A stretch of DNA of 32,000 nucleotides from Promethearchaeia archaeon (GTDB lineage Archaea; Asgardarchaeota; Lokiarchaeia; Sigyniarchaeales; SOKP01). Shown one piece after another: positions 10,177 through 29,235 of the stretch. The DNA is taken from contig JAWOFX010000057.1 of the NCBI GenBank assembly GCA_046497275.1, positions 30,001 to 62,000 on the forward strand, given 5' to 3'. The notes below the pieces were generated by a model that worked only from the letters and a program-made list of their open reading frames with translations, did not search any database and was not told where the DNA came from. The position numbers were made by a program, and so were the translations under genes. Position 1 is the first letter of the stretch. The number at the start of each line of letters is the position of its first letter.

Positions 10177-11589
10177 TTAAATATAGGTATTTATCAGCTC
10201 GATTAGATTGGTTGATAAATCCGGTAAATTTTTTTCTATTTTTTCAATCTCTATTTGATTTTCTAACAGAATTAAAAGATATAGCTTATATTTATCTACT
10301 TGAATTTTCTTAAATATTAATTTTTTGGACTCATCAGTTATCCCTGAGGTAGTTATGAAATCTTTCTCTAACAATTTAAATTCTTTAAATGTTTTATACA
10401 ATGTCTGGAAATGAGGAGCTGAAATTTCAAAAACTTGTCCGGATATATCGTCTTTTGAATAATTCGATAATATAATACCACTATCATTCAAAAGGAGAAT
10501 AGCATCTGTTTTAGTTTTCTTTGCAAATCGTTTTAATTGTTGCTTGAATAATTTTCTATTAGGACTGAGTTGAGAAAGACCAAATGAATAGGCAGAAATT
10601 AATGACCAATGAGCAAAAATAGAAGTTTTAAAAATCTTAACAAAAAACCTGTCGGAAAGATTCTTTATGTGTTCACTGATATGCTTCACATTACTCTCGA
10701 TCTCTTCAGAATCCTTTAAATCAGGGTCATATTTATTTAAACAAACCACAATAGGAGGATATTCGTCAAGTTCATTTAGCGAGGTTATAATTCTTCGAAA
10801 TAAAGCCAAACTTTTGTCTAAACGTTGAGTATCTTGTATATCAACGAAAAAAAACAATAGATCAACATTATACAAATAAATTTTACTCTGTTCAAAATAT
10901 CTTTCTAAATATTTTTTCTGACCACCCAAGTCCCAAATCATAATTTGAGAAGAATCATTAGATAAGAGATGCTCTTCCGAGCGATCAACTCCTTTAGTTG
11001 GTAAAGATTTGATTATTTCTGAATATTTTTTCTTTACTCCTAATAAAAAACTTGTTTTTCCCACTTTATCTAATCCTGCGAAAACGACTTTAATTTTACG
11101 TTTTGAAGAGAATGGATCTTTTAATTCGCTAGTAAAATTAATTAATTCGTTTTTTAATGAACCTATAATTCTATGATAGCTCTCTTCATCGGGAGACTTC
11201 TGAATCTGTGAGGCTATACGATCTATTATAACTCGTAAATATTTCATATTTTCATAAAAAAAAGTTCTGTTATTTTCATCCACTAAAATTGTTATTGTGG
11301 CGGCTTTCGCTTGTCCTCTTGCTTCAGGGTCAGCAATTAAAAAGAAATAGGTCAGTCCATTTAATTTTAGATCAGGAAACGGAATTACTCCAAAGTAATT
11401 AATTCCATCAATTTCGAAACTATCTTGATAGGTGGCATCTCCCATAAGAATACTGATTGTTTTCATAGCGATAAGCATAGTTGCCATTTGATCCATTGAT
11501 TCAGGCCAAACAACTAATGGAGATGGACCTTCTTCGTCGAACACACTTAGAGTTATAGCCTTAATTATATCTTTATCAGAAGTTTCCAT
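10177..11589 (-). CDS. uDENN/longin-like domain + Rag/Arf-like small GTPase + C-terminal roadblock/longin-like domain
   Basis: N-terminal LSVFDEEGPSPLVVWP. GTPase motifs are G1 GLDKVGKTS, G2 PT, G3 WDLGGQ, G4 NKYD and G5 TSIF. C-terminal DAILLLNDSGIILS fits a roadblock pattern. Confidence 0.8.
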   Translation of the reverse strand: METSDKDIIKAITLSVFDEEGPSPLVVWPESMDQMATMLIAMKTISILMGDATYQDSFEIDGINYFGVIPFPDLKLNGLTYFFLIADPEARGQAKAATITILVDENNRTFFYENMKYLRVIIDRIASQIQKSPDEESYHRIIGSLKNELINFTSELKDPFSSKRKIKVVFAGLDKVGKTSFLLGVKKKYSEIIKSLPTKGVDRSEEHLLSNDSSQIMIWDLGGQKKYLERYFEQSKIYLYNVDLLFFFVDIQDTQRLDKSLALFRRIITSLNELDEYPPIVVCLNKYDPDLKDSEEIESNVKHISEHIKNLSDRFFVKIFKTSIFAHWSLISAYSFGLSQLSPNRKLFKQQLKRFAKKTKTDAILLLNDSGIILSNYSKDDISGQVFEISAPHFQTLYKTFKEFKLLEKDFITTSGITDESKKLIFKKIQVDKYKLYLLILLENQIEIEKIEKNLPDLSTNLIELINTYI

Positions 11590-11781: not shown

Positions 11782-12570
11782 ATGTTCCATTTCCGATCTA
11801 GAGATGAAATAATCCCGTTATTTCATGAGATCTATAATATTTTGTGTACTTTAGAGAGAGATTTAGATGAACCATGGTATAAAATTGATAAGATTGAATT
11901 TTTCCAGAAATACTCTTCACAAGAAATTGATTCGATCATCATGAACTTTGATTTTCTTCATAATGAGAGTTGGAATCATGTTTCTATTAATAAAATAGAT
12001 TTCGTTTTAGACTCCTTAAATTTTCTGGAACATGATATTTCCCAACTTTCGATGATTTTAAATTATAGTAATTTCGAAAAATTAGTCAAGCGAATACTTG
12101 CTTTTAACGAATTCAATGTTATCAACAATTTCAGATTTTCTGATAAATCGAATTATAAGAAACAGACGGATCAACACCGTTATGAAATAGACGTAATCGG
12201 ATTAAATCGAAAAATATTAATTTTAATTGATGCGAAACAATGGAATAGAAGAGATTCTTTTTCAGCTATTAATAAAGCAGCGAATCTTCAACTTCAAAGA
12301 GCGAGAGCCTTAAAAAATAATCCTTTAATACTAGGAGATTTAATCACCACTTTAATCGGAAAAGTTAATGATATTAAAAATCAACTCCCACTCACCTTCA
12401 TCCCTATTATGGTAACTTTAGAAGAAAGCAATATTAAATTAAACCATAATAAAGTTCCTTTAGTTTCAATATACAAATTAAATTCTTTTTTACAAGAATT
12501 GAATGAGAATTTGTATTATTTTAATACAATTATAATTGATAAACTCTCCATTCAAGAAACAATCCTATAA
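11782..12570 (+). CDS. PD-(D/E)xK nuclease-fold protein (restriction-endonuclease/NERD-like)
   Basis: YSNFEKLVKRIL...YEIDVIG...LILIDAKQW fits the E...D...DxK nuclease motif. Confidence 0.7.
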   Translation: MFHFRSRDEIIPLFHEIYNILCTLERDLDEPWYKIDKIEFFQKYSSQEIDSIIMNFDFLHNESWNHVSINKIDFVLDSLNFLEHDISQLSMILNYSNFEKLVKRILAFNEFNVINNFRFSDKSNYKKQTDQHRYEIDVIGLNRKILILIDAKQWNRRDSFSAINKAANLQLQRARALKNNPLILGDLITTLIGKVNDIKNQLPLTFIPIMVTLEESNIKLNHNKVPLVSIYKLNSFLQELNENLYYFNTIIIDKLSIQETIL

Positions 12571-12773: not shown

Positions 12774-12779
12774 ACAATA

Positions 12780-13472
12780 ATTAGTAAAAAAGATTCTCCC
12801 ACTGATTATGAACTCGAAATACTAGAGTGTGTCAGAAATCATCCATCAGGGGTAACAATTACCGATATCGCTGATCTCTTAGGGTTTTCCAGAAATACCG
12901 TGTCAAAATACATTAGTATTCTCGAATTGAAGAACAAGATTTATAAAAAGAAAGTTGGGGCGTATTCTCTGTATTTTAGTTCTGAAGAGAGCTATTTACC
13001 TAATAGTTTGATATTATCGTATTATAAAGCGTTTTTAAAAGGACTCCGCAAAAATTTTCCCAATAAAGAGGAAGTGTTTAAAAATATTGGTCAAAATCAA
13101 GCTGATATGATAAAATTTTCTTTTAGTCCCAATATTTATAAGCAATTGAAGAGTTTGAAAGGTCATCCTGTATCTAAGATCCACTTAGAAATGTTTAAAG
13201 AATTTTATTCCGCCTATGACATTTTCCAACCTAATGTAGAAATCTCAATATTGGATGTCGATCCTAAAGGTCAAAAGGCTATCTATCGGTTCAAGAATTC
13301 CGTGTTTTTAGATGACAATGACCTTTATATTTATCATATTTACCTAATGTCAGGAATCACGCAAGCAATCTTGGAAAGAGAACTGGGAAGGGATGTTATA
13401 TGTAAAGTAGAGAATTATCACATCAGTGATGATAAAAGAGATTCTTATTTTGACATTTCAATTACTCTCTGA
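12780..13472 (+). CDS. HTH + V4R/HNOB-like ligand-binding transcriptional regulator (true start upstream of the ORF-track start at 12900)
   Basis: The frame is open from 12774 and encodes ...ELEILECVRNHPSGVTITDIADLLGFSRNTVSKYISILE..., a complete wHTH. The GTG at 12900 falls inside the recognition helix. The C-terminal YLMSGITQAILERELG...CKVE fits V4R-like domains. Confidence 0.75.
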   Translation: MSKKDSPTDYELEILECVRNHPSGVTITDIADLLGFSRNTVSKYISILELKNKIYKKKVGAYSLYFSSEESYLPNSLILSYYKAFLKGLRKNFPNKEEVFKNIGQNQADMIKFSFSPNIYKQLKSLKGHPVSKIHLEMFKEFYSAYDIFQPNVEISILDVDPKGQKAIYRFKNSVFLDDNDLYIYHIYLMSGITQAILERELGRDVICKVENYHISDDKRDSYFDISITL

Positions 13473-13625: not shown

Positions 13626-16289
13626 TTAGGGACTATGTGTGCCATCGCCATCATATATAGTCCAATTAAATGTGTCAACAATATATTGCCTTGCGGTAGC
13701 AGGAGCACCTGGATCAGTACATACCGAATTTCCAGCACTGAATTCGACCTCAGGTTGTAAAGTTAAATTCGACCAACCTATCAATAAACTGTCATAATTC
13801 GCAGTTGATAATGTAAGACTATTAAACATGCCAGCCATATTTGAAACTTGCGATACGTTCCAGCTACCTAAATCCTGATCGAACGATGAAGCTCCAGAGA
13901 ACATATATTGCATATTTTCCACATTTGAAACATCCCAGTCACCAATATCTTGATTAAAGGAAGTAGCATTGAAAAATATAGAGTCCATATTATTTACGCT
14001 CGATATATTCCAATTTCCTAAATACTGATCGAACGATGATGCTCCAGAGAACATAGAGTTCATATAAACAACACTGTTAACATTCCAATTACTAATGTCT
14101 TGATTGAAAGAAGTTGCATTCAAAAACATACCACTCATAGAAATTACATTTGATACATCCCAATTGCTAATAGGTCCGTTAAACAAGAGATCATCTCCAA
14201 ACATGAAATGCATATTATTCACATTTGATACATTCCAGTTATTCAAATCCTGATTAAAAGAATCAGCACGGAAAAACATCCACCCCATATTAGTCACCCC
14301 TGAGACATCCCAACTACCGACATCTTGATTAAAATCATGAGCCATATAGAACATACTGTACATAGTTGTTACATTTGATACTATCCAGTTGCCAATATCT
14401 TGATTAAAGTAAGTCGATCTAAACATAAAACTCATATCTTTTACATTTGAGACATCCCAGTCACCAATGTCTTGATTAAAAGAGGTTGCTGCTGAAAACA
14501 TTCTAGACATATCAGTAACACTCGATACTTCCCAATTACTTATATTTTGGTTAAAGGAATACGCAGCATCAAACATTTCCCTCATATCTTCCACTTTTGA
14601 TACGTCCCATCCTCCAATATCTTGATTAAATGAAATAGCACCATCAAACAATCCTGTCATATCTTCCACATTTGATACAGTCCAATTACCGATATCTTGA
14701 TCGAAGGAGGAAGCTCCAGAGAACATAAACCTCATATCAATAACACTCGATACATTCCATCCACCTATATCTTGATTGAATGGTGTACCATAAAACATAT
14801 AATCCATATTCAAAACCTTGGAAACATCCCATCCTCCAATAGATCCATTGAATTTTGTAGCCACATTAAACATGTGATTCATATCCGTGACGTTGGATAC
14901 GTTCCATCCTCCGATATCTTGATTAAACACTTCAGCAGCCTCAAACATCCCACTCATATCTATCACATTGGAAACATCCCAACCTCCTATATCTTGATTA
15001 AAAGAAATCGCGTGCAAAAACATCCCACTCATATCAGTAACACTTGAGACATCCCAATCACTAATACTTTGATTAAATGTATTGGCGTATCTAAACATAC
15101 TTTTCATATTAGTGACACTTGATACATCCCAGTTATTAAGATCTTGATTAAAAGCATCAGCTCCTGAAAACATATGATTCATATCTCTAACATTCGATAC
15201 ATTCCAACTTCCAATATCTTGATTGAAGGAAGAAGCAGCGGTGAACATTGCGTACATAGACTCCACATTTGACACATCCCACTCACCAATATCTTGATTA
15301 AAGTAATGAACATCATAAAACATGTAGCTCATATCCGTCACGCTAGATACATCCCAACCTCCAATATCTTGATTAAAATAATCAGTACCACCCAGCATCC
15401 CCCTCATGTTAGTAACACTTGATACATTCCATTCTCCAATATCTTGATTGAAAGAAGAAGCGTGAAAAAACATAAAACTCATATCTGTGACACTCGACAC
15501 ACACCAATCACCAATATCTTGGTTAAAATAATCAGCAGTACTAAACATATATCTCATATCTCTTACATTGGAAACATCCCATCCTCCAATGTCTTGATTG
15601 AAAGCTTCATTAGAATTAAACATATAGCTCATATCTCTTACATTGGAAACATCCCATCCCCCGATACTTTGATTGAAATCAGTCCATTGGAACATATGAC
15701 TCATATCTTCAACATTTGATACATCCCATCCATTGATATTTTGCAAATTATCAGGTTGAAGGTTATAGCAAGAAGTAAAAGCTAAATCTAAACTTAATGT
15801 ACCAGTCAAATCTAGAATATCGGTTGCGGTAATCTCAAGATTTTCGCATCCATAAAAATATCCTCCAGAATTGCCTAGCAGTAAGACACCCCATTGTTTT
15901 ATCTCAAGGATTTTGTCTTTATCTCCGTTATTATTAAACCTCCAACCGATGATTGTCCCTGTTATATTTATTGTATATACTCCCTCTGAGGTATAGGTAT
16001 GGGTGGTTTCCGCTTGATCCCAACTCGTTATATTATCCTCGGTTCCATCGCCCCACTCTACTTTAAAATTATAGGTTCCAGACGATTCCAGTGGTAATTT
16101 GATTTGGTCGCTATTACTTGATCCAGAACTTGTGAATGTAGTATTCCAGGTGGATATAAAGGGCTCCCCTTGGAATTCTCCATCTCCACCGTCAGGGGCC
16201 TGTAAAAATACTAACAACAAACCTATAGTGAGCCCACTCACGATAAGAACAGCGATGAGTATAATTGCAAACTTTTTTTTCTTTATCAT
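13626..16289 (-). CDS. Membrane-anchored BspA/DUF285 (25-residue repeat) surface protein with a PKD-like domain
   Basis: N-terminal TM anchor, WGDGT PKD-like motif, and 26 FNQDIGxWDVSxVxxMxxMF repeats. The ATG at 16289 follows GGTGA, so the ORF-track GTG at 16298 is probably part of the SD. Confidence 0.92.
13830..15745 (-). repeat. Intragenic ~75-bp degenerate tandem repeat array (26 units) encoding the DUF285 repeats
   Basis: Recurrent + strand ACATCCCA...TCTTGATTAAA units at a ~75-bp period. Boundaries are approximate. Confidence 0.9.
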
Positions 16290-16356
16290 TAAATTCACCT
16301 ATATTTTTTTAAAAAGGTTATAGAGATGATCTTATTTTCCTTGCTTTTATAGATAT

Positions 16357-16368
16357 ACTATCGATAGT
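16357..16368. promoter_or_regulatory. 12-bp perfect palindrome ACTATCGATAGT
   Basis: Read directly from the sequence; it lies 5 bp from the larger palindrome, upstream of the DUF285 gene. Confidence 0.35.
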
Positions 16369-16373
16369 TCCAT

Positions 16374-16400
16374 GAAACTTCCATTCAGAATGGAAGTTTC
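16374..16400. repeat. 27-bp inverted repeat GAAACTTCCATTC-A-GAATGGAAGTTTC (operator, terminator or cruciform candidate)
   Basis: Perfect 13-bp arms with a 1-nt centre, intergenic, about 85-110 bp upstream of the DUF285 start. Confidence 0.7.
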
Positions 16401-16718
16401 TTCTTTTAATAAATTTTTAATAATTAATATAGGATTTCTGTGAAAAATAAGAATATAACCTTTCAAAATAAAGAAAAATTAAATAAAAATAGGATGTTAA
16501 TATTGGAAAGTACTTATTTTGATAAATTAAAAACTCTGAATAATTTATCTAGGGTGTCAGATCTTGTAAAAAATGATAATTTCAATAATAGAAAAAAAAG
16601 GCATTAAAAAATTCAACATTTAAAAAATATCTTATTTTGTGGGCTCGAGGTTTCTTTAAAAATTAGAAAAATAATAGTGAGTATAATAAAATACTCTATT
16701 ATCGAAGAGAATTATGAA

Positions 16719-19223
16719 TTAATCGTTTTTGTCAATGTTTTCTGATATTTGGGTACTATTTTCAGGTTGGTTCGCTTCCGGTTTTTTTACATTATTATTA
16801 ACTTCCTCCTTTATTTCTGGAACCGGTTTTTTCAGTTTACCTTTTTTTTTGGGGGAAATCTGATTTTTCATTTTCCTATTTACTACAATATTCCTCCCTG
16901 TATAAGTTCCTCCAGTTACAGTTAAGATTGCTCCAATTTGAATACCCCAAAACATAATATTGCTTCTCGCAGTTAATGCTGGATATACTTGACTTGAGAA
17001 TTCGGAAGCTAATTCTTTTGGGACTTCTCCACTCCGCTCGAACCAAATGATTGGCATAATTGATTCATTTATATTTGGTTTTAATTTATTAGATGGATTC
17101 ACTTCAAAATTTATTTGTATTCTTTGTTTAGCATTCATAGTTATTCCAGAAATAGGTTCTACGTCTATAAATGTCTCATGATTCTCCTTTATAGGATTAA
17201 TTCCGATTATAGAATCTGCGATTTCATGTTCACAACCCAAAAAGTGTGGTTTACTCACTCTGACAGGAACTCCTTGGTATTGTTCTACAGGAGATAAATT
17301 GATTATTCCAGGTGTATCCATATAATATTTTTCATTCGGCGCAAAGCAATCAGAATTTAATGTAAATCGTAAAAGTCTTATACCATGTATGGATGTATCT
17401 TCTACATATTCAAGATCCACAACTCTCATCAAATCGGGCTGGAATGTTTGTAATGTTTCTTCTTTAGAAATTCCTTGATGAAATTGCATGCCATCAGTCC
17501 CTCCAACAATTTCTGGGGAATCCCAAATTTCAATTGTATCAGTTCCATCATATTTAACTATTGTTTTGGCGTTATTCATATCATCTTGACCCGTTTTAAT
17601 AGTATAACTCTTGACTTGTTCATATTCAGCTTCTGTTTCATCTTCTATGTCATCAAATATATTCACTGATGCTAAGTTTGTATCCTTTCCATAATAGTTC
17701 ATATAATTTATTATCGCATTGTCTCTTGCACTGAATAACCACTCTTCAGCTGTTCTAGTGGAAATCACCCCACTATTCCAATCGTTAAGGGTGTATTCGA
17801 TTACATTCGGCTCCCACGTGGAAACACTCGTATTAATCCATCTCAAAATCGCTTCCAATTGAATATCATTGAGATTAAATTCATTTTTTAAGAATAATCT
17901 ATTTGGCCCACTTTGATCCTCGGATAATGCTTCGAACCATGTTTTATTTGTTTCATAATCTAATTTTGTTAAAGAATAAGAGTTATTTTCGTCCCATAAT
18001 TCAGCACATTGAGAAAAATTTAATCCCGTTTCAATATCAACTGTATAGAGCGGTAAATTCATGGTGGTCTCGGCATATATCGGCCAAAATACCAACTCGC
18101 TAAAGATTTTAATAAGGCGTGAAGTTTCCACTGCTCTTGTATTAGTAATATTTAAGTCTGCTTCACTGCCATCAGTATAATTATATTGACCATCTATATC
18201 TACCCCCAAGCCATTAATACTTCCTGATTCATCAACCATATCTGCTCCACGCTTAGTTATGATGTCATCCATAGCATCTTGAACTTCATTATCCTCAAGA
18301 ACTTTCTCCATAAGATTCTCCACAGCACCTGCACTTATTGTCTCAATAATCCCTTCTCCATTAAAGCTTATATTTGAGATCAATATCTCATAATTTCCAT
18401 TAAATTGCGGGAAATAATCATTGCCCCATTCAGCATAAAATACTTCCTCCCATCTTGGCATCCCATCCTGAAGAAAATACATCAAATGTTCCATTTCAAT
18501 ACATTTAAAGAATATATCTGCAACGCTTCCTGGTAAAAGCCCTTGCAAATTCCGAGTACAATCTTTCAGAATATCTCTTTGAGTTTGTTCAACCCAATCA
18601 GGATTTGAAAGAGTTGATTGCATTGTTTCTGTAAAAATCGTTTTAAATTCTTGTTTTACTTGAGAAAGGACAAAAGGCAGATTCATTTCAAGGAAATTCC
18701 TTTCAGTCCCTCCAGCAACTTCGAATGCTCCCAAAAGCCCCGGATTTATATTTGTGATCTCAACCTCTGAAATATTCTCTCCTTCTATTTGAACATAATC
18801 AACATATTCCTTATAGGTCACTTCTGTGTTATCACCATTAAATTCAATATCATATTTCGTTTTATAAGCAAGGAAAACAAATGGTCCAACTTCTTCATAT
18901 ACTGGTGTTCCTCCAGCTAAAAATTCTTCAGAATTAGTTAAGTTCCACAAATAATACGAATAATATTCTTCAGGAGCACCAGAATAATTGTTGGAAGTGA
19001 AATGATCATAATTAGAATCTTGAGAAGATGGAATAACAATATGTTCAGAAAGTCCTTGATTTATCAGGTTTTGGATTAAATTTCCCATAATAATCCCTCC
19101 AGAAATTAAAATCCCCCCTAGAATCAATATCGCTACAAATCTTTTGACTTTTTTCGGTGTTAAATTAGTTTCAGATGCTTCAAGTGGTTTATTCTTCTTT
19201 TTTTTAACTTTCTTCTCACTCAT
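16719..19223 (-). CDS. CD36-family (SR-BI/LIMP-2-like scavenger receptor class B) membrane protein with a large internal insertion
   Basis: There are TM helices near both termini. Ordered CD36 motifs are WNLTNSEEFLAGGTPVYEEVGPF, KYDIEFNGDNTEVTY, ITNINP, TAEEWLF, YTIKTGQDD, WDS...GGTDGMQF, DLMRVVDLEY, HGIRLLRF, PVRVSKPHFLG, GINP..ENHETFIDVEPISG, QRIQIN and MPIIWFE. Confidence 0.88.
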   Translation of the reverse strand: MSEKKVKKKKNKPLEASETNLTPKKVKRFVAILILGGILISGGIIMGNLIQNLINQGLSEHIVIPSSQDSNYDHFTSNNYSGAPEEYYSYYLWNLTNSEEFLAGGTPVYEEVGPFVFLAYKTKYDIEFNGDNTEVTYKEYVDYVQIEGENISEVEITNINPGLLGAFEVAGGTERNFLEMNLPFVLSQVKQEFKTIFTETMQSTLSNPDWVEQTQRDILKDCTRNLQGLLPGSVADIFFKCIEMEHLMYFLQDGMPRWEEVFYAEWGNDYFPQFNGNYEILISNISFNGEGIIETISAGAVENLMEKVLEDNEVQDAMDDIITKRGADMVDESGSINGLGVDIDGQYNYTDGSEADLNITNTRAVETSRLIKIFSELVFWPIYAETTMNLPLYTVDIETGLNFSQCAELWDENNSYSLTKLDYETNKTWFEALSEDQSGPNRLFLKNEFNLNDIQLEAILRWINTSVSTWEPNVIEYTLNDWNSGVISTRTAEEWLFSARDNAIINYMNYYGKDTNLASVNIFDDIEDETEAEYEQVKSYTIKTGQDDMNNAKTIVKYDGTDTIEIWDSPEIVGGTDGMQFHQGISKEETLQTFQPDLMRVVDLEYVEDTSIHGIRLLRFTLNSDCFAPNEKYYMDTPGIINLSPVEQYQGVPVRVSKPHFLGCEHEIADSIIGINPIKENHETFIDVEPISGITMNAKQRIQINFEVNPSNKLKPNINESIMPIIWFERSGEVPKELASEFSSQVYPALTARSNIMFWGIQIGAILTVTGGTYTGRNIVVNRKMKNQISPKKKGKLKKPVPEIKEEVNNNVKKPEANQPENSTQISENIDKND

Positions 19224-19403
19224 ACTAAATTTTTCACTTTTTTCTTAATAAAAGATCTCGATCATCATTAATGATCAAATATATAAAATACTATTTGTTT
19301 TTCAATATATTTAAATCTTTTCTCAATCCGTGGTAAATAAAATTAGAATGAGTAAAAATCAGCCATAAGGTATGTTAAAATGGATTAATAAATATCTCCA
19401 AAT

Positions 19404-20444
19404 TTATTTTATTCCAAGATATTCTTTAACTTGTTTTCTAACCAAATTCGTCGCAATATTAATGACTCCACTTTTAACCTTCGGATTTGAAAATATAATA
19501 AGTAACATCTTACTTAAATTGGGATTTTCTGAATCTATAGGTGCTAAGTCCAATATCCCTTCTGTACCTCTAACTGATATTGATTGAAGCGACCCTGCAC
19601 TTAACCCATCAATAATATCCTCTCCCATCATTGACAAATTTTGCCCGATAGTTGCGAATAAGGTATCCGAAATCCTATCGGAAATAGCTGAAGCAAGAAT
19701 TGTTCCATCTCGATTAATCAGTGCACTAGCTTCACAGTTTATATCGATATTTAACAATTTTTTTAAAATTTCCGTTAAACTTTCTGGCTTAATTTCTTTT
19801 TGAGGTGCTTTTTCTTCCTCAACTATTTCAGCTTGCTCGATTTCTTCCTCCGGTTGAGGTATTTGTAATTTTTCTGAGAGAAACCTTAGCACTTCCCTCA
19901 TATCTTCTTCAAGCTGTTTTCTTTTCCCCTGGATTTCATCTGTTTGCTGCACTTTTTTCCTAGAAGATTCTTGCGGTGGTTTTACTGGAGTGAGTGGTTG
20001 GGGTTGGGGTTTTGCTTTTGGTTGTGAAGTTGAAATTCCGGACACAGGGTCTTTGGAAAAAATAGATCCATCAAATGGACTAGGCTCTATCTCTTCAAGG
20101 TAATCCCATCTATTTTGAGTTGATGGCTGAAATTCATCCTGTTTCTCAATGTTATTATCGATTCCATTTCCACTCATCGGAATTTCTTGAAGGGATAAAT
20201 TATTTTTTTCTTCTGTTGTTCCCTTAGAATTAAAAAATTTAGCTTCCGCAGGGGTAAAGGTCTTGGTTTTTGATTTAGATTGTTGATTATCACTTGTTTC
20301 TTTGTTTTCGCTTTCTTTTTCTTTTTTACCAAATGGAACCCGTAATCTTGGGGCCTTTGTGGAAACTGGAAGGAGTGCACCGCACTTCCGACAAACTTTA
20401 GTATTCTCATCATTTGTAGAGCCGCAATTTGGACAGATGATCAT
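19404..20444 (-). CDS. Double zinc-ribbon + Pro/Gln/Ser-rich disordered linker + C-terminal roadblock/LC7 domain protein
   Basis: The likely ATG at 20444 gives MIICPNCG...CRKCG. The C-terminal EASALINRDGTILASA...LQSISVRGTEG...KSGVINI is roadblock-like. Confidence 0.78.
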   Translation of the reverse strand: MIICPNCGSTNDENTKVCRKCGALLPVSTKAPRLRVPFGKKEKESENKETSDNQQSKSKTKTFTPAEAKFFNSKGTTEEKNNLSLQEIPMSGNGIDNNIEKQDEFQPSTQNRWDYLEEIEPSPFDGSIFSKDPVSGISTSQPKAKPQPQPLTPVKPPQESSRKKVQQTDEIQGKRKQLEEDMREVLRFLSEKLQIPQPEEEIEQAEIVEEEKAPQKEIKPESLTEILKKLLNIDINCEASALINRDGTILASAISDRISDTLFATIGQNLSMMGEDIIDGLSAGSLQSISVRGTEGILDLAPIDSENPNLSKMLLIIFSNPKVKSGVINIATNLVRKQVKEYLGIK

Positions 20445-20629
20445 AGTGTTAAAAATTTTTTTTTCTAAAAAATTATCAATAAAATCATTAAGACTTATAT
20501 AAAAATCCAAATATAAATTAATTTCTGTTAACTTTCCATATGAATTTTATTTTTCTTGTCTTTTATACAAATCTTCTTTTTAATATAAAAAATCAAAATT
20601 TGGATGGATTCGATTTTTGCGTTTTTAAG

Positions 20630-21379
20630 TTAACGATCTAATCTCTCAGCTATCCATTTCGGTATTACTAATGAAAAATACAAAAATAGCACAAATATAA
20701 AGGCAAAAACCCACCCTAAATATACGAAAATTGAATATCCTGGATGCTCGAACGCAACAATTAAAATATTATCAAGGGTTATCATAACAAAAAACATAAT
20801 CATAGAAAGCACAGCATAAAATAGAAATGTCAATCCCCATTTTGTAATCTTTTCCTTCGCTTGTGATTTTACATTCCAGCTTATAGAAGCAATTGAAGCA
20901 TAGATCAAAATTGAATATATCGCAAAACTAATTGTGGTATAGGTTCTAATATTTATCTCTCCTTCATAATCCTCGTGAGGGATACCCCACCAATTCCAGG
21001 GCAAAATTAAAAGAACTATCAAAACTAAACCGATAATAATAATTGGAATTAATGCTTTTTCTCCTTTCTCAGTTATGTTCACGGCAAAATTATATAGAAA
21101 AATATCTGCAATTACTACACAACAATACGCTAAGGGAAAAGTTATTCTATAGATTTCTTTAAAATAGCCCGTTATGATAGTTTCAGCAGCTCCAATTGCA
21201 AGAAACGTTAAAGCGAATATAAATGAAATGAACACATATGATAGATATAGCGGCTCATCATATTTTCTTTCTCGCCATTTAATCAACATTTTAATAGCTA
21301 AGAAGCTGCTCGCAAGTATTAAGATAATATAAATGGCGAAAAGAGGATAAATTCCTTGATTAATAGGTGTATATGACAT
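20630..21379 (-). CDS. Stand-alone seven-transmembrane protein (HisKA-7TM-like, no kinase domain)
   Basis: Likely ATG at 21379 (MSYTPINQG). Seven hydrophobic segments were counted by eye, and the protein ends VIPKWIAERLDR. Confidence 0.7.
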   Translation of the reverse strand: MSYTPINQGIYPLFAIYIILILASSFLAIKMLIKWRERKYDEPLYLSYVFISFIFALTFLAIGAAETIITGYFKEIYRITFPLAYCCVVIADIFLYNFAVNITEKGEKALIPIIIIGLVLIVLLILPWNWWGIPHEDYEGEINIRTYTTISFAIYSILIYASIASISWNVKSQAKEKITKWGLTFLFYAVLSMIMFFVMITLDNILIVAFEHPGYSIFVYLGWVFAFIFVLFLYFSLVIPKWIAERLDR

Positions 21380-21512
21380 AGAATATAATTTGTTACAACC
21401 ACATAAATAGATTTTCTTTTTAGTTATAAGGTGCAAGATCAAATTCAGAGCTTTTGATTAAAAAACCCATAAAAGAAATATGGATTATTTTAATCTTAAA
21501 AATTATAAATTT

Positions 21513-22460
21513 TTATTTATACAAAATTTCCTGTAATAGATTCGTGAGGGATTCAATATCTTCTTTATTATATTTTGGCTCTTCTTTCACCAATAATAAA
21601 TAATACGGTGGTATCCCCTCTTTTAATGTGATTTGCTTAAAAATAAAATACTTATCATAGCGTTGAACTAAGACGTTATTCTCCGGATCTTTTATGATTT
21701 TTGCTTTATCCTCAGCAACTTTAAAACTATCGTTAAGAGTTAAGAAATATGGAGTGGAAGAGTCTAAGATAGTTTTAATTTCATCATTTTTAAAGTAAGA
21801 ACCAATCTGGAGGCTATTATCGTCAATAACAACTACTCCCTCTGCACCTACTTTTTCCGAGAATTCTTTTATAGTTTTATTAATTAACTCAGATTTTGGA
21901 TATAATGTCAAAAGAATCTCAGACATCGCTCTTATAATCGAAGATATATCATAAATTGTCGTATTATAGAAATATAACCGTTTGTACTCTGATTTCTTCT
22001 TTATATCTTGTTTTAAGTTGAGAGTGAGGTTTGAATATTCATTATACGCACTGCGCTCTAAGACGGGATCGAATTTATGAAAAAAGATATATATTGGAGG
22101 GCTAATTTCTAATTCTTCAAATTGTGCAATCACATCTTTGAGATAATCAATCGCTTCAGGTATTCTTTTCTTGTCTTGGATATCAATAACATATATTGCT
22201 ATCTCTGTATTATCAAAATATTTTGAGGGATTCTTTAGATACGCAATGCGATACGACTTCTGGCCTCCTAAGTCCCATTCACTAATATTCTTATCTAAAA
22301 ACTGGAATACTCTTCTCTGCGCTCCTCTTGTCGGAGAAAGAATCGCTATCTTCGAGAATTCTCTCTTAAGTACCATTATGATTGAAGTCTTTCCTGCTCC
22401 GTCAAGACCGGTAAATAGAATTTTAGATGCTTCTGGATCTTCTTCTTTTAAATATTCCAA
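21513..22460 (-). CDS. Rag/Gtr-like small GTPase with C-terminal roadblock domain (paralog B)
   Basis: TTG start with SD GGTGA. Motifs are G1 GLDGAGKTS, G2 PTRG, G3 WDLGGQ, G4 HKFD and G5 TTIYD. EGVVVIDDNSLQIGS fits a roadblock pattern. Confidence 0.82.
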   Translation of the reverse strand: MEYLKEEDPEASKILFTGLDGAGKTSIIMVLKREFSKIAILSPTRGAQRRVFQFLDKNISEWDLGGQKSYRIAYLKNPSKYFDNTEIAIYVIDIQDKKRIPEAIDYLKDVIAQFEELEISPPIYIFFHKFDPVLERSAYNEYSNLTLNLKQDIKKKSEYKRLYFYNTTIYDISSIIRAMSEILLTLYPKSELINKTIKEFSEKVGAEGVVVIDDNSLQIGSYFKNDEIKTILDSSTPYFLTLNDSFKVAEDKAKIIKDPENNVLVQRYDKYFIFKQITLKEGIPPYYLLLVKEEPKYNKEDIESLTNLLQEILYK

Positions 22461-22777
22461 GAATGAATTTCACCTTACGTTCTTAAACCTAAAAAATTAT
22501 TCTTATTAAAATAAAAACAACAATACTAATTTATTAATTTTGTCCCAGATCTTATTAAAAAATTTTTCTAACTTGATCTAAAGAACTAAAATTTGCTTGT
22601 AATTTTTAAAGAAAACTGATTGGCTTCTTGATATTTAATATTAAATACACGTAATTATTTAATAGTTTCTATTAAAAGGAGATTAATAACAAAGAATAAT
22701 CTGAATAATATTTATAAAATCGTTTATCTTTTAGAAGCAAGTGTTTCCAATTTCTATGAAAAAAGGAAATTGGAAAT

Positions 22778-23728
22778 TTAAATTAGTAATTGTCTAAGCA
22801 AATTGGAAACTGATTGAATATCTTTGCTATAGTAATCAGGGGTAGCTTTCACCATTAGAAGATAATAAGGTGGAACGCCCTCTCCCAATATTAATTTAAA
22901 GAAAATGAAATTTTTTTGGAATTTTTTTATAACCATTGTCTGGAAAGGACTATTTGGATTATTAAGGGAATTATTATTGACTTTCTCGAAGCTATCGTTA
23001 AGAGTTAAGAAATACGGAATAGAATCCATAACAAGGTCTTTTATACTTTTATTTGTAAAATATGAACCAATGAAGAGAGAGTTATCATCCACTATTAATA
23101 TTCCTTCCGAAGTAGTTTTTTTCGCAAACTCTTCTATTATTTTATCTATTAATGTCGTTTTAGGTACTAATGATAAAAAGATCTCAGAGAGAGCTCCAAG
23201 CACAGATGATATGTTAAAAATAGAGGTGGTATGAAAATCTATGGTTTTATAATTTAAATTCTTGTTTATTTTCTTTTTTAATTTTTTAATATGAGAATCA
23301 TAATTATTCTCTTGGTCTTTTAAGAGTTTTGGGTCTGCTTTATGGAAAAATACATGAATAAACGGGGCAATCTCTAATTTATCAAATGTTTGGACAACTT
23401 TTTCTAAAAATTCAATTGCTTCATTGAATCTGTTATTATCTTGAATATCAATTACATAAATTGCGACACTAGTGTTAGCAAAAAAGTCATTGGGTCGTTT
23501 TAAGTAAGAAATACGATATTTTTTTTGTCCTCCAAGATCAAATTCGGCAATTTGCTTTCCTAAGAAGTCGAATATTCGCTTTTGGCTACCTTGGGTTGGA
23601 CTTAAAGACTCTATTTGAGCAAATTCTCGTTTGAGAACTGAAATAATAGAAGTTTTTCCCGCATTATCTAAACCAGTGAAAAGCACTTTTTCTGTTTTTT
23701 GATCTTCCCGTTGCATATATTTTAACAA
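22778..23728 (-). CDS. Rag/Gtr-like small GTPase with C-terminal roadblock domain (paralog A)
   Basis: TTG start with SD GGTGA. Motifs are G1 GLDNAGKTS, G2 PTQG, G3 FDLGGQ, G4 HKAD and G5 TSIFN. The protein is colinear with paralog B over its full length. Confidence 0.82.
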   Translation of the reverse strand: MLKYMQREDQKTEKVLFTGLDNAGKTSIISVLKREFAQIESLSPTQGSQKRIFDFLGKQIAEFDLGGQKKYRISYLKRPNDFFANTSVAIYVIDIQDNNRFNEAIEFLEKVVQTFDKLEIAPFIHVFFHKADPKLLKDQENNYDSHIKKLKKKINKNLNYKTIDFHTTSIFNISSVLGALSEIFLSLVPKTTLIDKIIEEFAKKTTSEGILIVDDNSLFIGSYFTNKSIKDLVMDSIPYFLTLNDSFEKVNNNSLNNPNSPFQTMVIKKFQKNFIFFKLILGEGVPPYYLLMVKATPDYYSKDIQSVSNLLRQLLI

Positions 23729-23864
23729 AATTTTTCACCCATTTCCTTATTAAACACTAAATAATTTAAGATGATTTGGGGTAATAAAGATTTATGCTAT
23801 AATACATTTGCAAACTCTATATTTTACCTTAAATTTGAAAGAGGAAAAGAAGAAATAATTTATT

Positions 23865-25214
23865 CTAAAAATTTTTGAGTAAAAAGGTCTTAAAACCGTT
23901 ATAGTTTGTAATTTCTACCGGGTTTGGGATTTCTTCACGATTTTGAATTTTTTTTAATGAATCCGGTATTTCGGGAGTAACATTAATCAGTTCGATAATT
24001 TCATCTGGGAACTTGGCGGGATCTGCGGTTTCAAAGGTGATGGATTTAATATTTTTTTCATTAGGATGTTCCTTTCTGTAGTATTGAAGTGCTCTCCATC
24101 CAACGGCGCCGTGAGGTTCTAAAATCCCTTGATATTCGTTATAGAAATTTTTGATTGTTTCTTTCGTTTCATCATCAGAAATGGAATATGAAACAATTTT
24201 TTTTCTCATTTGTTCCATATTTGGTTTTTTATGAATAGTACCAGTCTCATCAATCTGACCACCGTAAAGATCAATCAATCGTGCGAGATTAGAGGGATGA
24301 CCTACGTTCATAGCATTAGAAATGCAATTTTTGGACGGTTCAACCTTTTCATAAGTTCCAGTGGTTAAAAATTTTGGAAATTCATCATTCTCATTCACTG
24401 CAGCAATAAACCGTTTCACGGGAAGACCCATGTTATAAGCAATTAATCCTCCCATTAAATTACCGAAATTTCCAGATGGAACTGAGAATATGACTTTCTC
24501 TCCTTGTGTTTCTACAATTCTGGAATAACCCCAGAAATAATAAAAGGTTTGTGGTAGCAATCTACCAAAATTAATAGAATTTGCAGACGAGAGTCTTAGA
24601 TGACTGAGGTCATTATCGGCAAACGCTTTTTTTACATATTGTTGACAATCATCAAATTTTCCTTGTATCCCTATTGCTGTGATATTTTTACCCAAAGTAG
24701 TCATTTGTTTTCTCTGAAGTTCACTAATTTCATATTTCGGAAATAGAACGACTACGCGAATGCGGGCCATTTCATAAAATGCTTGAGCGACTGCGCCCCC
24801 TGTATCTCCTGAAGTTGCCGTTAATATGATTATGTTTTTATTCTCCTTTTCCAAATAATACTCCAGCAATCTTGCTAATGTTCTTGCGCCGAAGTCTTTA
24901 AAACTACACGTTGGACCCCTATCTAAATAACAGATGAAACCATTCTCCGTTATTGATTTAACTGGGGCGTCAAAATTTAATGCTTTTTTAACAATTTTCT
25001 TAAATTCTCTCTTGGGGATAGTATTTCCAATAATTTTCGAGAGAACAATAAGTCCTATTTGGTGTAATGATAAGTTTCTAAAGGAAAAAATTCGTTCTTC
25101 CTCTAATCTATTTATCTTATTGAGCATATACAGCCCTTTATCAGGAGCTTGCCCTTTCAATATAGCCTCTTTAAAATTCACATTAGGAGAATTATAATTC
25201 GTTGAATGGAACAT
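23865..25214 (-). CDS. thrC: Threonine synthase (long, E. coli/yeast-like type)
   Basis: GQAPDKGLY, GPTCSFKDFGAR (PLP lysine), ATSGDTGGAVA, SSANSINFGRLLPQ, VPSGNFGN and TADPAKF. Confidence 0.93.
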   Translation of the reverse strand: MFHSTNYNSPNVNFKEAILKGQAPDKGLYMLNKINRLEEERIFSFRNLSLHQIGLIVLSKIIGNTIPKREFKKIVKKALNFDAPVKSITENGFICYLDRGPTCSFKDFGARTLARLLEYYLEKENKNIIILTATSGDTGGAVAQAFYEMARIRVVVLFPKYEISELQRKQMTTLGKNITAIGIQGKFDDCQQYVKKAFADNDLSHLRLSSANSINFGRLLPQTFYYFWGYSRIVETQGEKVIFSVPSGNFGNLMGGLIAYNMGLPVKRFIAAVNENDEFPKFLTTGTYEKVEPSKNCISNAMNVGHPSNLARLIDLYGGQIDETGTIHKKPNMEQMRKKIVSYSISDDETKETIKNFYNEYQGILEPHGAVGWRALQYYRKEHPNEKNIKSITFETADPAKFPDEIIELINVTPEIPDSLKKIQNREEIPNPVEITNYNGFKTFLLKNF

Positions 25215-25286
25215 AGTAGTAATAATATCAAATCAAAGTTTACCAAAAAATATTATCTAATGCTTTGTCCTTCAAACTTATAATTA

Positions 25287-25532
25287 TCAAAATTTACCGA
25301 AAAAATTGGTGATATCGAAATAAACAGTTTCTTCTTTACCATTAATATTTAAAGTAAGCATATCATACATTCGATTATCAATTTTAAGTAGAGATTGTTT
25401 TAATAGTTTATATTGTCCAAACCTTCTTTTTATTTCGGTAATTTCTTGACCAACTCCTTCAATATTATTACAATCTGTTATTATAATGGCATCATCTTGA
25501 CAAGAGCCATTTCCTCCTTCAATCCTAACCAT
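25287..25532 (-). CDS. Small conserved-looking hypothetical protein
   Basis: 81 aa, GGNGSCQDDAIII...YDMLTL...YFDITNFFGK, co-oriented with its neighbours. Confidence 0.65.
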   Translation of the reverse strand: MVRIEGGNGSCQDDAIIITDCNNIEGVGQEITEIKRRFGQYKLLKQSLLKIDNRMYDMLTLNINGKEETVYFDITNFFGKF

Positions 25533-25614
25533 TTTATTCCCTATTTTAAGTTATCAATTTCATATTATGACTTAATTAAATTTAAGGATATTTGTTTTAT
25601 GCTTAATATTAATG

Positions 25615-26974
25615 CTATAACACAATTGAAACCTTTTTATAGATATACTTTTGTTCGGGTATAAGAGAACTAGGACCAGCAAATATATAGGCTAAGATCG
25701 TGGAAATTGCTACTGGTATAAATAAGATTGGCAACCAACTCATTTCGATCACAATTACAATCGCTGAAATCGGATTGTTTGTTGCTGCACCTAGTACTGA
25801 GGAAATCCCAAGAATAACAAACAGTTCAAGGTATTCTTGATAAAAAATGTCCCCAAAAAAACCTTCCAATAATGTTCCTAAAAGTATAAGTGGGAGGATA
25901 ATTCCAGCACTATTTAAGGTTCCAATGGATAGAAAAATTCCAATCAAGAATATTACTATAAATAGAAAGAGAATATACCAAGGAATAGAGGCACTTATAA
26001 GATTTGTAAATAGCGTTAAATAATCAGAATCTGGTCCAATAATAAGATTTTCGAAATCACCCCCCAAATAGGGAACTATTAAAAATAAAAATAATGAATA
26101 TAAGATCGTTCCGAGAAATGGTAAAATCCATATGCTAGTTTTATCTGTGAAAAATTTTGAAAGCTTATTTATAAATCCTCTTAAAAGTCCCATAAATACA
26201 AATAGGAATAATTCTGAAAAAATTCCGAATATTATTGATAGAAAAATAAAATAAATGTAATTTACATTTTCCACATTAAGAATTTCATGGAGTTGGAGAA
26301 ACGGATCTAAACCAAAAAATGCAGCATATATAAAATATGCTATTGTAGCCGCGATGATCGATGGAATTAAAGATCGATATTTTATATGATTATTATATGG
26401 CAATTCCGCACAAAAAAGTGACCCTCCGATGGGTGATCTTAAGATAACCCCAGTACAAGCACTCGCTCCTGTAAATATAGATACATCCATATCTAAGGAA
26501 AATCTTTCTGATTTATAAAATAAATAGCCCAGATTACAACCTATTAAAAGTCCAGGTCCTTGTAATCCACAAATTACACCCGAACCAAAAGTCCAAGAAG
26601 TAGCAAGTGTTTTTCCTATCAAATTTTTTAATCTTTCAAATGATTTTGTTGGAACTTGAGGATTCGTTTCATGCAATATGTGCACATCTTCAACAAATTC
26701 TGCAGCACCTGTTCCCATCACGCGATCTAAACTAAAAACTTTAACGATAATACTTATTAATCCTCCAGCCATCATAGGGGTTATAAAATAAGGGAAAAAG
26801 CAAAAACCAAACTCAAAAATCATTAATAAATAAAAAAAAACCAACCATTAGAAATCCGCTAACAGTTCCTAGAATAATAGAAACTAAAATCAGACCCAAA
26901 TACTTTTTTAACCAAAGTTCCTCTAATTTAAAAAAATCTCTGACTTTTTTAAAAATATTTAATTTTTCTGTCAT
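25615..26974 (-). pseudogene. ClC-family chloride channel/transporter homolog, frameshifted at a T9 tract (26832-26840), without CBS domains
   Basis: The ATG at 26974 frame encodes a ClC-like first helix and stops at 26813-26815. Removing one T joins it to the 25615 ORF. ClC motifs are recognisable: GxxxGLQGP, SPIGGSLFCAE and GAATNNPISAIVIVIEM. Confidence 0.72.
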
Positions 26975-27026
26975 TTAGTTTTTTTTAATAAAATTAGTAA
27001 TAATTATATATTATTAGGTTTATAGA

Positions 27027-27575
27027 TTAAAAAGTATCAGTAAAACTCAAATCATTGTTTTTGTTTTCTTGAAAAACTTTATTTAAAATAGAAATTACCT
27101 CTTCTGGAGTTTCAGCCCCATAGATCTGATCGGATCGTCTATCATCAATTTTTTTATTAGCCATTTTAGCGGACCATCCTGGAACACTCGAAAGTGCTAT
27201 TATTGGTTTTTGATAAATCCACGCAAAACACATTTCAGAGAGTGTACCTGCTTTTCCTCCAATAGCAATTACGGCGTCACCACTTAAAACAACTATAAGA
27301 TTTCTTCCTTGTGAAAATGGGACAGGAATAACAATATCAACATAATCATTAGCGGCACTTTTTTCTTTGTAAGGAATTATTCCAATTGTTAAACCCTTTT
27401 CTTGTTTTACCCCCTTACACACTGCCTCCATCGCTCCAAAAAGCCCCCCACAAACCACAGCATAATTGTTTTGTGCCAAGAGCCTCCCTATTTTAATTGC
27501 TTTTTCCTCACTGTCTTTATCAATCTCACTTCCACAAATTACTGAAACCACTCCTTTGATTTTATCGAAAGACAT
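27027..27575 (-). CDS. LOG/SLOG family Rossmann-fold protein (TIGR00725-like)
   Basis: VCGGLFGAMEAVCKG, GLTIGIIP, and GRNLIVVLSGDAVIAIGGKAGTLSE. Confidence 0.85.
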   Translation of the reverse strand: MSFDKIKGVVSVICGSEIDKDSEEKAIKIGRLLAQNNYAVVCGGLFGAMEAVCKGVKQEKGLTIGIIPYKEKSAANDYVDIVIPVPFSQGRNLIVVLSGDAVIAIGGKAGTLSEMCFAWIYQKPIIALSSVPGWSAKMANKKIDDRRSDQIYGAETPEEVISILNKVFQENKNNDLSFTDTF

Positions 27576-27635
27576 AAGTTATGCATTTATTATATGAATT
27601 TTTAAATTTTTTAATATTGTTTTAATATCCATAAA

Positions 27636-28643: not shown

Positions 28644-28682
28644 TTTCTTTAAACCTAAAATTAAGTTAGATTGTGAAGTAAC

Positions 28683-29174
28683 TTATGAATGAATGAGGAT
28701 AAGGTTCTTCTCTTTACATATTATATTTAATTCTTTGATTAATTCTTCTTTACTAATTGAATCTGGAAAGTCTAATTTAAATTTTACATTACTAATTTCA
28801 CTAATTTCTGTAAATTTGGCTTGTAACTCTTTCACTTTTATTCCTTTTTTTGCTAATCTTGTAATGGTATCAACAACATCTGTATCAAAAACATGACCAG
28901 TCATTATTATTGTTATATGTCGTTTCTCTACTCCTAGCGCAATTTTGTCAATACGTATATTTTTATCGCGTAATTCTTTCTTAATATTTTCAAGACTGGT
29001 CTCCTTTAATTTTTCATTGAGTTCAAATGTTATATTTACAGGAATCATATTATTTAACTTTTTATCGTGATGATGGAGAATTCCAAAGATATTTCCTCCA
29101 TTATTTGAGATGGGTTTAATTAATTCTATAAGACTGCCCGGTGTATCCGGAATCCGCACCTCTAAATCAATCAT
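28683..29174 (-). CDS. Tandem ACT-domain protein (stand-alone amino-acid-binding regulator upstream of hom)
   Basis: LEVRIPDTPGSLIELIKPISNNGGNIFGILH and a second unit, IIMTGHVFDTDVVDTI. Confidence 0.82.
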   Translation of the reverse strand: MIDLEVRIPDTPGSLIELIKPISNNGGNIFGILHHHDKKLNNMIPVNITFELNEKLKETSLENIKKELRDKNIRIDKIALGVEKRHITIIMTGHVFDTDVVDTITRLAKKGIKVKELQAKFTEISEISNVKFKLDFPDSISKEELIKELNIICKEKNLILIHS

Positions 29175-29235
29175 TTTCTTTATCTCTTTTACACTCTATT
29201 TTTAATTAATTTTCTCATTCTTTTTTAAATGGTTA

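Follow-up and report, generated by a model that had tools for sequence, protein, structure and literature searches.

Roadblock proteins are regulators of small GTPases: MglB acts with MglA, and LAMTOR2/3 act with the Rag GTPases. Work on MK-D1 proposed from AlphaFold2 (AF2) models that Rag-like GTPases carry a C-terminal roadblock domain, described one operon with a tandem Rag-like pair whose members are predicted to form a heterodimer via their roadblock domains, and noted that it is difficult to tell from gene arrangement which roadblock protein matches which GTPase (Tran et al. 2024, PMC10933270). The stretch of DNA analysed here, named the window, comprises 32,000 nucleotides of a Promethearchaeia archaeon genome of 3.85 Mb and 98.9% completeness (assembly GCA_046497275.1, contig JAWOFX010000057.1, positions 30,001 to 62,000; G000:C172:30001-62000). 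Five consecutive genes of the window encode two Rag-like GTPases (RagA and RagB), a seven-helix membrane protein (7TM), a protein with a zinc ribbon and a roadblock domain (ZnRobl) and a CD36-family membrane protein (CD36). They are followed by the gene of a DUF285-repeat surface protein (DUF285).

An earlier note on this DNA, made from the sequence alone, read the five genes as a proto-lysosomal nutrient-sensing module, in which 7TM would be the sensor, RagA and RagB a heterodimeric switch, ZnRobl a Ragulator-like adaptor and CD36 a LIMP-2-like protein; it would represent a precursor of the lysosomal Rag system. The gene content given there for the six genes was confirmed by Pfam, by profile comparison and by AF2 modelling combined with Foldseek, the C-terminal roadblock domains of the two GTPases being predicted from the published AF2 work. 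Gene order in related genomes leads to a different interpretation of the whole. We consider, with a probability of about 0.75, that the stretch is an evolutionary mosaic and not one functional module.

Gene order in related genomes

The homologs of each gene were located separately in a panel of 400 genomes of the phylum, including 134 of the window's own family, and the DNA surrounding them was compared. The order of the five genes was found in this species only, where it recurs identically in two more public assemblies and is therefore not an assembly artefact. One relative (GCA_014730295.1) has the same order without 7TM. The proposed module thus fails the gene-order test that accompanied the proposal. 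The spread of its parts differs as well: within the family, ZnRobl is found as one ortholog in 128/134 genomes, 7TM orthologs in 67/134 and CD36 in 19/134. The co-orientation of the five genes on the minus strand is not special to them, since every called gene from 13626 to 30954 (at least 12 genes) is encoded by that strand. The spacers from RagA to CD36 measure, in order, 317, 133, 119-185 and 180 bp. As the earlier note cautioned for Asgard genomes, such GTPases are abundant: the genome has 31 matches to the Gtr1_RagA model, of which ~10 are strong, and 14 to Robl_LC7. A random gene has a rough chance of ~9% of having a GTPase or roadblock gene within four genes on either side, an estimate that assumes ~45 such loci among ~4000 genes.

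The history that we propose has an old core and recent local additions. RagB followed by ZnRobl would be the old core, lying in a core-genome block together with a 470-aa Rag-like GTPase that possibly has a longin domain. RagA would be a tandem duplicate common to the two closest relatives only. The CD36 gene and its regulator, which combines a winged helix-turn-helix (wHTH) with a V4R/Bet3-type fold, would have been inserted, here with DUF285 in addition, at a variable spot downstream of ZnRobl in this sub-lineage. This species alone would have gained the free-standing 7TM gene between RagB and ZnRobl. No ancestral "proto-lysosomal" sensing module is supported, because 7TM and CD36 are recent local arrivals.

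The presence and adjacency of all five domain types, the repetition of their order in independent assemblies of the species and the RNA-library contigs found over parts of RagA, RagB, ZnRobl and CD36 (see below) speak for a five-gene module, and the following points speak against it. 7TM occupies this site in a single species, its context elsewhere being variable; CD36 is found here in a shallow sub-clade only and has lipid-metabolism neighbours elsewhere, RagA is a recent duplicate, and the phyletic distributions of the parts are unrelated. 7TM matches no Pfam family, hence none of the amino-acid transporter families, no LAMTOR1-like or TOR component was identified, and an oligo-T run lies soon after the stop codon in every spacer, a frequency that is at chance level at 17-22% GC. 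Gene order brings the five-gene module close to refuted and we judge it extremely unlikely. Such a module would have shed remarkable light on how nutrient sensing arose in eukaryotes, and the finding of a species-level juxtaposition guards against over-reading it.

The closest relatives illustrate the history of the site. A word-indexed protein search retrieved a 68%-identical CD36 from GCA_014730295.1, on a contig that carries ACT, HSD, LOG, CLC, ThrS, RagA, RagB, ZnRobl and CD36 genes in this order and lacks 7TM. This contig has 86% DNA identity to the corresponding locus of genome G274 up to the end of ZnRobl. Past ZnRobl, G274 encodes a 1012-aa membrane protein (L072:5568-8603) at the position of window 16719-19223. 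The protein has the N- and C-terminal anchors and the Lys-rich tail of CD36 without the CD36 core, and a ~70-aa motif of the insertion that interrupts the window's CD36 is repeated in it at least four times. This organization suggests an ectodomain replacement within ~86% nucleotide identity of a CD36-bearing relative. Downstream of the 1012-aa gene are found genes for an AMP-binding enzyme and an NMO/FabK-like protein and a homolog of orf190, which codes for most of the regulator mentioned above. CD36 directly follows ZnRobl only here and in GCA_014730295.1, with the CD36-derived gene taking its place in G274. As judged from these gene orders, CD36 joined the site in the ancestor of a shallow sub-clade and 7TM arrived in this species alone. 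The sites flanking the convergent NERD-like gene downstream of ZnRobl, on its ZnRobl side and on the side of the 470-aa Rag-like gene, carry other cargo in other genomes: genes for PFOR, thiolase and methylmalonyl-CoA mutase in G277, and open reading frames (ORFs) without a match in the window in G155 and G170. This unrelated cargo fits an insertion hot spot.

The same observations could reflect a lineage-specific coupling, in which Rag GTPases and ZnRobl were recruited, without 7TM, to control CD36 placement or turnover; the persistence of CD36-type genes immediately after ZnRobl would then be accounted for. The succession ZnRobl-CD36 here and in GCA_014730295.1 and the CD36-derived gene of G274 agree with this explanation, as does a second, differently arranged CD36 cassette found in G265:C33 between the NERD-like gene and the gene of the 470-aa Rag-like paralog, which is the sole hint of non-random attraction. 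The three genomes are, however, closely related, two of them sharing 86% nucleotide identity, and their shared order may be plain inheritance; the cargo at the NERD-like flanks of G277, G155 and G170 fits the hot spot, and ~23 other CD36 loci have no RagA/RagB- or ZnRobl-type neighbours. We regard a coupling of this kind as improbable.

The RagB-ZnRobl pair and its conserved block

ZnRobl loci were sampled from 22 relatives, namely 20 loci from 13 genera, G265 and the sister-family genome G132. A RagB ortholog is found upstream of ZnRobl and on the same strand in all of them (22/22). Two loci have an unrelated gene in between, coding for a leucine-rich repeat (LRR) protein in G151 and for a GH3 glycosidase in G165. 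Comparison of the loci identifies the RagB-ZnRobl intergenic spot as one that repeatedly takes up foreign genes. The LRR gene (L089:4908-5897) and the GH3 gene (L090:2984-5059) occupy the place equivalent to that of 7TM in the window.

The pair belongs to a mostly housekeeping block of ~20 kb that is kept family-wide. Its order is homoserine dehydrogenase, LOG-like, CLC, ThrS, RagB, ZnRobl, the convergent NERD-like gene, the 470-aa Rag-like gene, a transglutaminase-like gene and housekeeping-type genes; L13e-like and methyltransferase genes are also part of it, and the backbone of G265 is the same. In almost every locus sampled, the NERD-like gene is a direct or close neighbour of ZnRobl. The 470-aa Rag-like gene is within ~10 kb of ZnRobl in 21/22 loci and directly after it in G132, where RagB, ZnRobl and this gene are consecutive and co-directional. 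ThrS and CLC are missing from the ZnRobl loci of g12/g13 while the Rag-ZnRobl adjacency persists there. The ZnRobl-like genes of the more distant families f4 and f6 have no Rag neighbour. The 470-aa protein scores 23.1 bits with the Folliculin model (cut-off 23.3), and a profile of its N-terminal 150 amino acids matched no entry of the PDB. A second Rag-like GTPase with a ~150-aa N-terminal extension is encoded at 31131-32000 (plus strand) in the same conserved neighbourhood. Since 10177-11589 and 31131-32000 are both in the block, the block of this genome holds four Rag-like genes.

RagB and ZnRobl might be adjacent solely because they reside in a slowly rearranging core block, without any functional relation. 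The whole 20-kb block is kept across the family, its spacers of 90-250 bp and the tolerance of unrelated genes between RagB and ZnRobl agree with such neutral synteny, and in MK-D1 GTPase genes as a rule do not share operons with roadblock genes (Tran et al. 2024, PMC10933270). Yet the Rag-ZnRobl adjacency outlasts that of the flanking pairs, as seen from the missing ThrS and CLC genes of g12/g13, and three GTPase-system genes are consecutive in the sister family (G132). Neutral synteny also leaves aside that roadblock proteins are established small-GTPase regulators (MglB-MglA, LAMTOR2/3-Rags). We find it conceivable, if on the unlikely side.

The conserved adjacency, together with the roles of roadblock proteins with small GTPases, makes us lean slightly towards a functional partnership of RagB and ZnRobl. 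The link between a Rag GTPase and a roadblock adaptor is the part of the earlier proposal that is plausible, given its conservation in the 22 relatives, while the membrane-sensor and CD36/LIMP-2 parts are without support. Following the proposal made for Rag-like proteins of Asgard archaea, the Rag-like GTPase would dimerise via its C-terminal half, and a roadblock dimer of ZnRobl would act on RagB either as a GTPase-activating protein (GAP) of the MglB type or as a platform or guanine nucleotide exchange factor (GEF) of the Ragulator type. A prediction of the complex between RagB (21-row alignment) and the ZnRobl roadblock domain gave a score of 0.00; it was run without controls and has no weight either way. 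No earlier description of a Rag/zinc-ribbon-roadblock pair turned up in our literature searches. Conserved family-wide, this pair supplies one Asgard Rag-like GTPase with a specific candidate regulator.

Several points weigh against our reading of the locus. The whole block is syntenic and mostly housekeeping, so that the Rag-ZnRobl adjacency alone is weak evidence of a functional link. Binding between the two proteins stays predicted, by analogy with known pairs, and the roadblock fold of the Rag C-termini is taken from published AF2 models. In addition, the gene after ZnRobl is CD36 or derived from CD36 in three related genomes, and the G265:C33 cassette lies nearby in the same block; two landings may mean selection and not an insertion hot spot. 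The boldest alternative would have the trio of RagB, ZnRobl and the 470-aa Rag-like GTPase as a working archaeal counterpart of Rag-Ragulator-FLCN that captured the CD36 cassette and controls it. We see this as highly improbable; if true, it would be the first prokaryotic link of Rag-type signalling to a CD36-type membrane protein.

The Rag-like GTPases and ZnRobl

The G domains of RagA and RagB score best with Gtr1_RagA (PF04670; cut-off 22 bits; Table 1), Arf being next with 73 bits. The G1 (GxxxxGKT; GLDNAGKT in RagA), G3 (DLGGQ) and HKxD motifs are kept in both translations. RagB aligns over its full length with a solved chain, 8yl2_A ("GTP-binding protein", 342 aa; E 2.3e-85), and a second PDB entry, 8zla/9m28, matches its G domain; a literature search on the PDB codes 8YL2/8ZLA found nothing relevant. 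A profile of the Rag C-terminal half matched only the homologous chain 8yl2 in the PDB, and its alignment with the ZnRobl roadblock profile by hhalign had a probability of 0.2, that is, no similarity. An Atlas feature search with this half found short eukaryotic Gtr1_RagA clusters as the nearest (0.87), which we use as a lead only.

The relationship between the two GTPases was investigated with a maximum-likelihood tree of the RagB orthologs of relatives and of the tandem copies. RagA groups with the upstream copy of G274 alone (100/100), on a long branch nested among single-copy RagB orthologs; it is also present in GCA_014730295.1. Most relatives have a single RagB gene, and the tandem copies of G165 and G170 are placed outside the RagA clade, suggesting that they arose by separate duplications. 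Because RagA is nested within the RagB orthogroup, the pair is recent. The tree identifies it as a duplication with one fast-evolving copy and not as an ancient split of the RagA/RagC type. The "Rag pair" of the earlier note, understood as an A/C-type pair, is accordingly a lineage-specific duplicate, and the anciently diverged heterodimer of a RagA/B-type and a RagC/D-type protein is not what RagA and RagB represent.

The zinc-ribbon-roadblock assignment of ZnRobl, made in the earlier note, was upheld by several approaches. Its N-terminus matches Zn_Ribbon_1 (28.9 bits) and is followed by a linker of ~190 aa rich in K/E/Q/P/S. The C-terminus as a single sequence scores 14.5 bits with the Pfam roadblock model, under the cut-off, but a profile of 21 ZnRobl orthologs finds the Thorarchaeal roadblock structure 7f8m (E 1.3e-6), as well as 7yh1 and 9jue, in the PDB. 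The AF2 model of this part, with a predicted local distance difference test score (pLDDT) of 79, has the secondary-structure order alpha-beta-beta-alpha-beta-beta-beta-alpha, as in roadblock. Foldseek matched the model with MglB, LAMTOR2 and Asgard roadblock structures (probability 1.0; template modelling (TM) scores of 0.57-0.68), the best matches being MglB structures (E about 3e-7). By profile and fold, ZnRobl is a true roadblock/LC7 protein (PF03259). No hydrophobic segment was predicted in it.

The seven-helix membrane protein

The length of 7TM is counted from the ATG at 21379, the start used by its orthologs and by public gene calls. The protein has seven hydrophobic segments and short termini. 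A Pfam scan of 7TM and orthologs (19 sequences) matched no family, HisKA_7TM included, and an Atlas feature search found only unnamed archaeal clusters, one of them auto-named "histidine kinase N-terminal 7TM region", again a lead only. SLC38A9 is a member of an amino-acid transporter family, and a lysosomal sensor of its type would combine an amino-acid-transporter fold with a cytosolic Rag-binding tail. 7TM does not correspond to this type: it matches no Pfam family and has seven helices and short termini. Orthologs of 7TM at 20 sampled loci (40-71% identity) have neither Rag, ZnRobl nor CD36 genes within ~8 kb, and no constant neighbour was found across these loci. Only in this species is 7TM flanked by RagB and ZnRobl. 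Its species-specific site and its variable context elsewhere do not bear out the role of membrane nutrient sensor that the earlier note had assigned to it.

The CD36-family protein and its regulator

The identification of a LIMP-2/CD36 homolog was confirmed by Pfam (PF01130; Table 1). The match consists of two stretches, model positions 2-169 and 141-459, as a ~300-aa insertion splits the ectodomain match. An N-terminal transmembrane segment is found at 29-47, the tails are Lys-rich, and a hydrophobic stretch at the C-terminus can be recognised by eye although it stays under the simple threshold used; the protein is thus a full-length CD36-family member with terminal membrane anchors. It is the sole copy in the genome. 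The family is patchy among Asgard archaea: it was found in 29/400 phylum genomes (~7%), from six coded families, and its members are labelled "hypothetical" in NCBI records. Some Asgard CD36 proteins are 1000-1370 aa long, and G265 and G275 have two tandem copies. Literature searches combining Asgard or Lokiarchaeota with CD36 or scavenger receptor returned nothing relevant, which is no proof that the family is unpublished. A word-indexed search with the CD36 C-terminal region retrieved almost only Asgard proteins and one arthropod SNMP2, too few eukaryotes to tell descent from transfer.

The neighbours of CD36 elsewhere differ from those in the window. At 20 CD36 loci from 19 GTDB genomes no homolog of RagA/RagB, ZnRobl or 7TM was found within ~10 kb, and three further public CD36 contigs have no RagA/RagB or ZnRobl beside CD36; the G265:C33 locus holds the 470-aa Rag-like paralog. 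Strong 7TM orthologs are present in 8/19 CD36-positive family genomes, about the family average. The most constant CD36 neighbour in relatives is the orf190 regulator, found within 2 kb in 13/20 loci. In g12/g13 the context is fixed: CinA-like, unknown gene, CD36, orf190, (PIG-L), zinc-ribbon protein and TPR protein. An AMP-binding (acyl-CoA-synthetase-like) gene is beside CD36 or at most 6 kb away in G275 and two public contigs, and also occurs at the G274 site; NMO/FabK-like genes accompany CD36 at three loci and are also present at the G274 site (AMP-binding and NMO contexts: loci L049, L072, L101 and L102). In such contexts the AMP-binding gene can lie directly downstream of CD36, and alpha/beta-hydrolases (one locus), an ABC exporter and HTH regulators are found as well. 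These gene neighbourhoods suggest a cassette for uptake and activation of lipids or hydrophobic ligands, equipped with its own ligand-sensing regulator. CD36 would most likely be a surface tunnel protein for such ligands, controlled by the adjacent regulator, coupled in relatives to acyl-CoA-synthetase-type enzymes and independent of the GTPases. With lipid-metabolism neighbours in place of RagA/RagB or ZnRobl elsewhere, a LIMP-2-like role of CD36 in a Rag module is not borne out.

The regulator is longer than orf190 (12900-13472). The frame upstream of this ORF is open from 12774 and encodes the winged helix-turn-helix of the 227-235-aa orthologs. The HTH part at 12774-12899 is in frame without an ATG, GTG or TTG start in the window, and the orthologs start normally; a public gene call in one assembly has 230 aa with HTH matches. 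HTH_11/HTH_IclR matches were found in 6/10 aligned members. The AF2 model (pLDDT 78) was matched by Foldseek with palmitate-bound TRAPPC3/Bet3 and with the phenol-sensing V4R domains of MopR/PoxR/DmpR (probability 1.0; target TM 0.43-0.62). The Atlas feature search gave V4R clusters also, while Pfam V4R had no match in the regulator at the sequence level.

The DUF285 gene is absent from the CD36 and ZnRobl loci of relatives that were sampled. Gene calls in two other assemblies of the species (L104, L105) differ: one has a single product of 862 aa, the other two pieces of 628 + 239 aa. Since the call lengths differ across assemblies, this gene varies or is broken between strains.

Gene features and transcript signals

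The features of the locus are listed in Table 1.

Table 1. Coordinates of the features described in the window.
Feature	Position	Strand	Characteristics
RagA-like GTPase (RagA)	22778..23728	-	316 aa; Pfam Gtr1_RagA 94.2 bits; fast-evolving tandem duplicate limited to sub-lineage
RagB-like GTPase (RagB)	21513..22460	-	315 aa; Pfam Gtr1_RagA 95.5 bits; family-wide ortholog upstream of ZnRobl
Seven-helix membrane protein (7TM)	20630..21379, ORF up to 21442	-	249 aa; seven hydrophobic segments; without Pfam family
ZnRobl	19404..20444, ORF up to 20510	-	346 aa; N-terminal C4 zinc ribbon, linker, C-terminal roadblock domain
CD36-family membrane protein (CD36)	16719..19223	-	834 aa; Pfam CD36 270.5 bits, E 2.7e-80
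DUF285-repeat surface protein (DUF285)	13626..16298	-	890 aa; Pfam DUF285 1108 bits; local cargo
wHTH + V4R/Bet3-fold regulator (orf190 and upstream in-frame stretch)	12774..13472	+	AF2 model; HTH matches in relatives
NERD-like protein	11782..12570	+	262 aa; Pfam NERD 22.4 bits; in relatives convergent, downstream of ZnRobl
Rag-like GTPase with N-terminal extension (possible longin)	10177..11589	-	470 aa; Gtr1_RagA 87.6 bits

Public sequencing runs on the locus were inspected as Logan contigs, which cannot show co-transcription, transcript ends or expression level. Contigs from RNA libraries (salt-lake metatranscriptomes) cover parts of RagA, RagB, ZnRobl, CD36, DUF285, the regulator and ThrS; 7TM has little or no cover in 2/3 RNA runs. 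No RNA-library contig bridges two genes of the locus. In three runs belonging to two studies, RNA contigs stop 10-19 nt ahead of the RagA start codon (23738-23747), with Illumina adaptor as loose ends, and one RNA contig ends 21 nt past the ThrS stop (23844). These ends hint weakly at a short-leader transcript of RagA that is separate from ThrS. Oligo-T runs follow every stop codon and TATA-like words precede most starts, both at the level expected by chance for the GC content given above.

Comparison with known systems

The locus resembles the eukaryotic Rag/Gtr and Ragulator/EGO system in several respects. Gtr1_RagA is the best model for RagA and RagB, which have the HKxD G4 motif; a separate protein of predicted roadblock fold, ZnRobl, is encoded by the neighbouring gene, with a model that can be superposed on LAMTOR2 chains (TM 0.6-0.77); and the N-terminal region of the nearby 470-aa Rag-like GTPase has a borderline match to Folliculin, reminiscent of FLCN-FNIP. 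The differences are equally clear. The ancestral state here is one Rag gene, without an A/C-type pair, and its one roadblock gene, ZnRobl, encodes a zinc ribbon and a long linker in addition, whereas Ragulator has five subunits and is lipid-anchored. No counterparts of LAMTOR1, TOR or SLC38A9 were identified.

Bacterial MglA/MglB is similar in that a small GTPase gene adjoins a roadblock gene, and MglB is the best Foldseek match of ZnRobl. RagB differs from MglA in being Rag/Arf-like with a long C-terminal domain, and ZnRobl differs from MglB by its additional zinc ribbon and ~190-aa linker; a GAP role is putative. The architectures described in MK-D1 as "GTPase-RB" and "longin-GTPase-RB" are the same as those predicted here, but the GTPase genes of that organism as a rule do not share operons with roadblock genes (Tran et al. 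2024, PMC10933270), while the Rag-ZnRobl adjacency reported here is family-wide.

CD36 shares with the CD36/SR-B1/LIMP-2 family a strong full-model match, a predicted N-terminal hydrophobic anchor and a visible C-terminal segment. It is distinguished by the ~300-aa ectodomain insertion and, in relatives, by the V4R-type regulator and acyl-CoA-synthetase-like neighbours. Because cultured Lokiarchaeia show no internal compartments (PMC10933270), the archaeal CD36 ectodomain would face the outside and not the lumen of a lysosome. The association of Asgard CD36 with a V4R/Bet3 regulator and acyl-CoA-synthetase-like genes suggests uptake of lipids or hydrophobic substrates in the closest archaeal relatives of eukaryotes. 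The regulator, finally, compares with V4R/TRAPPC3 (Bet3) sensors such as XylR/DmpR/MopR: its model matches palmitoylated TRAPPC3 and the sensor domains of MopR/PoxR, and the predicted sensor fold is joined here to an N-terminal winged HTH rather than to a sigma-54 AAA+ activator or being part of a TRAPP complex.

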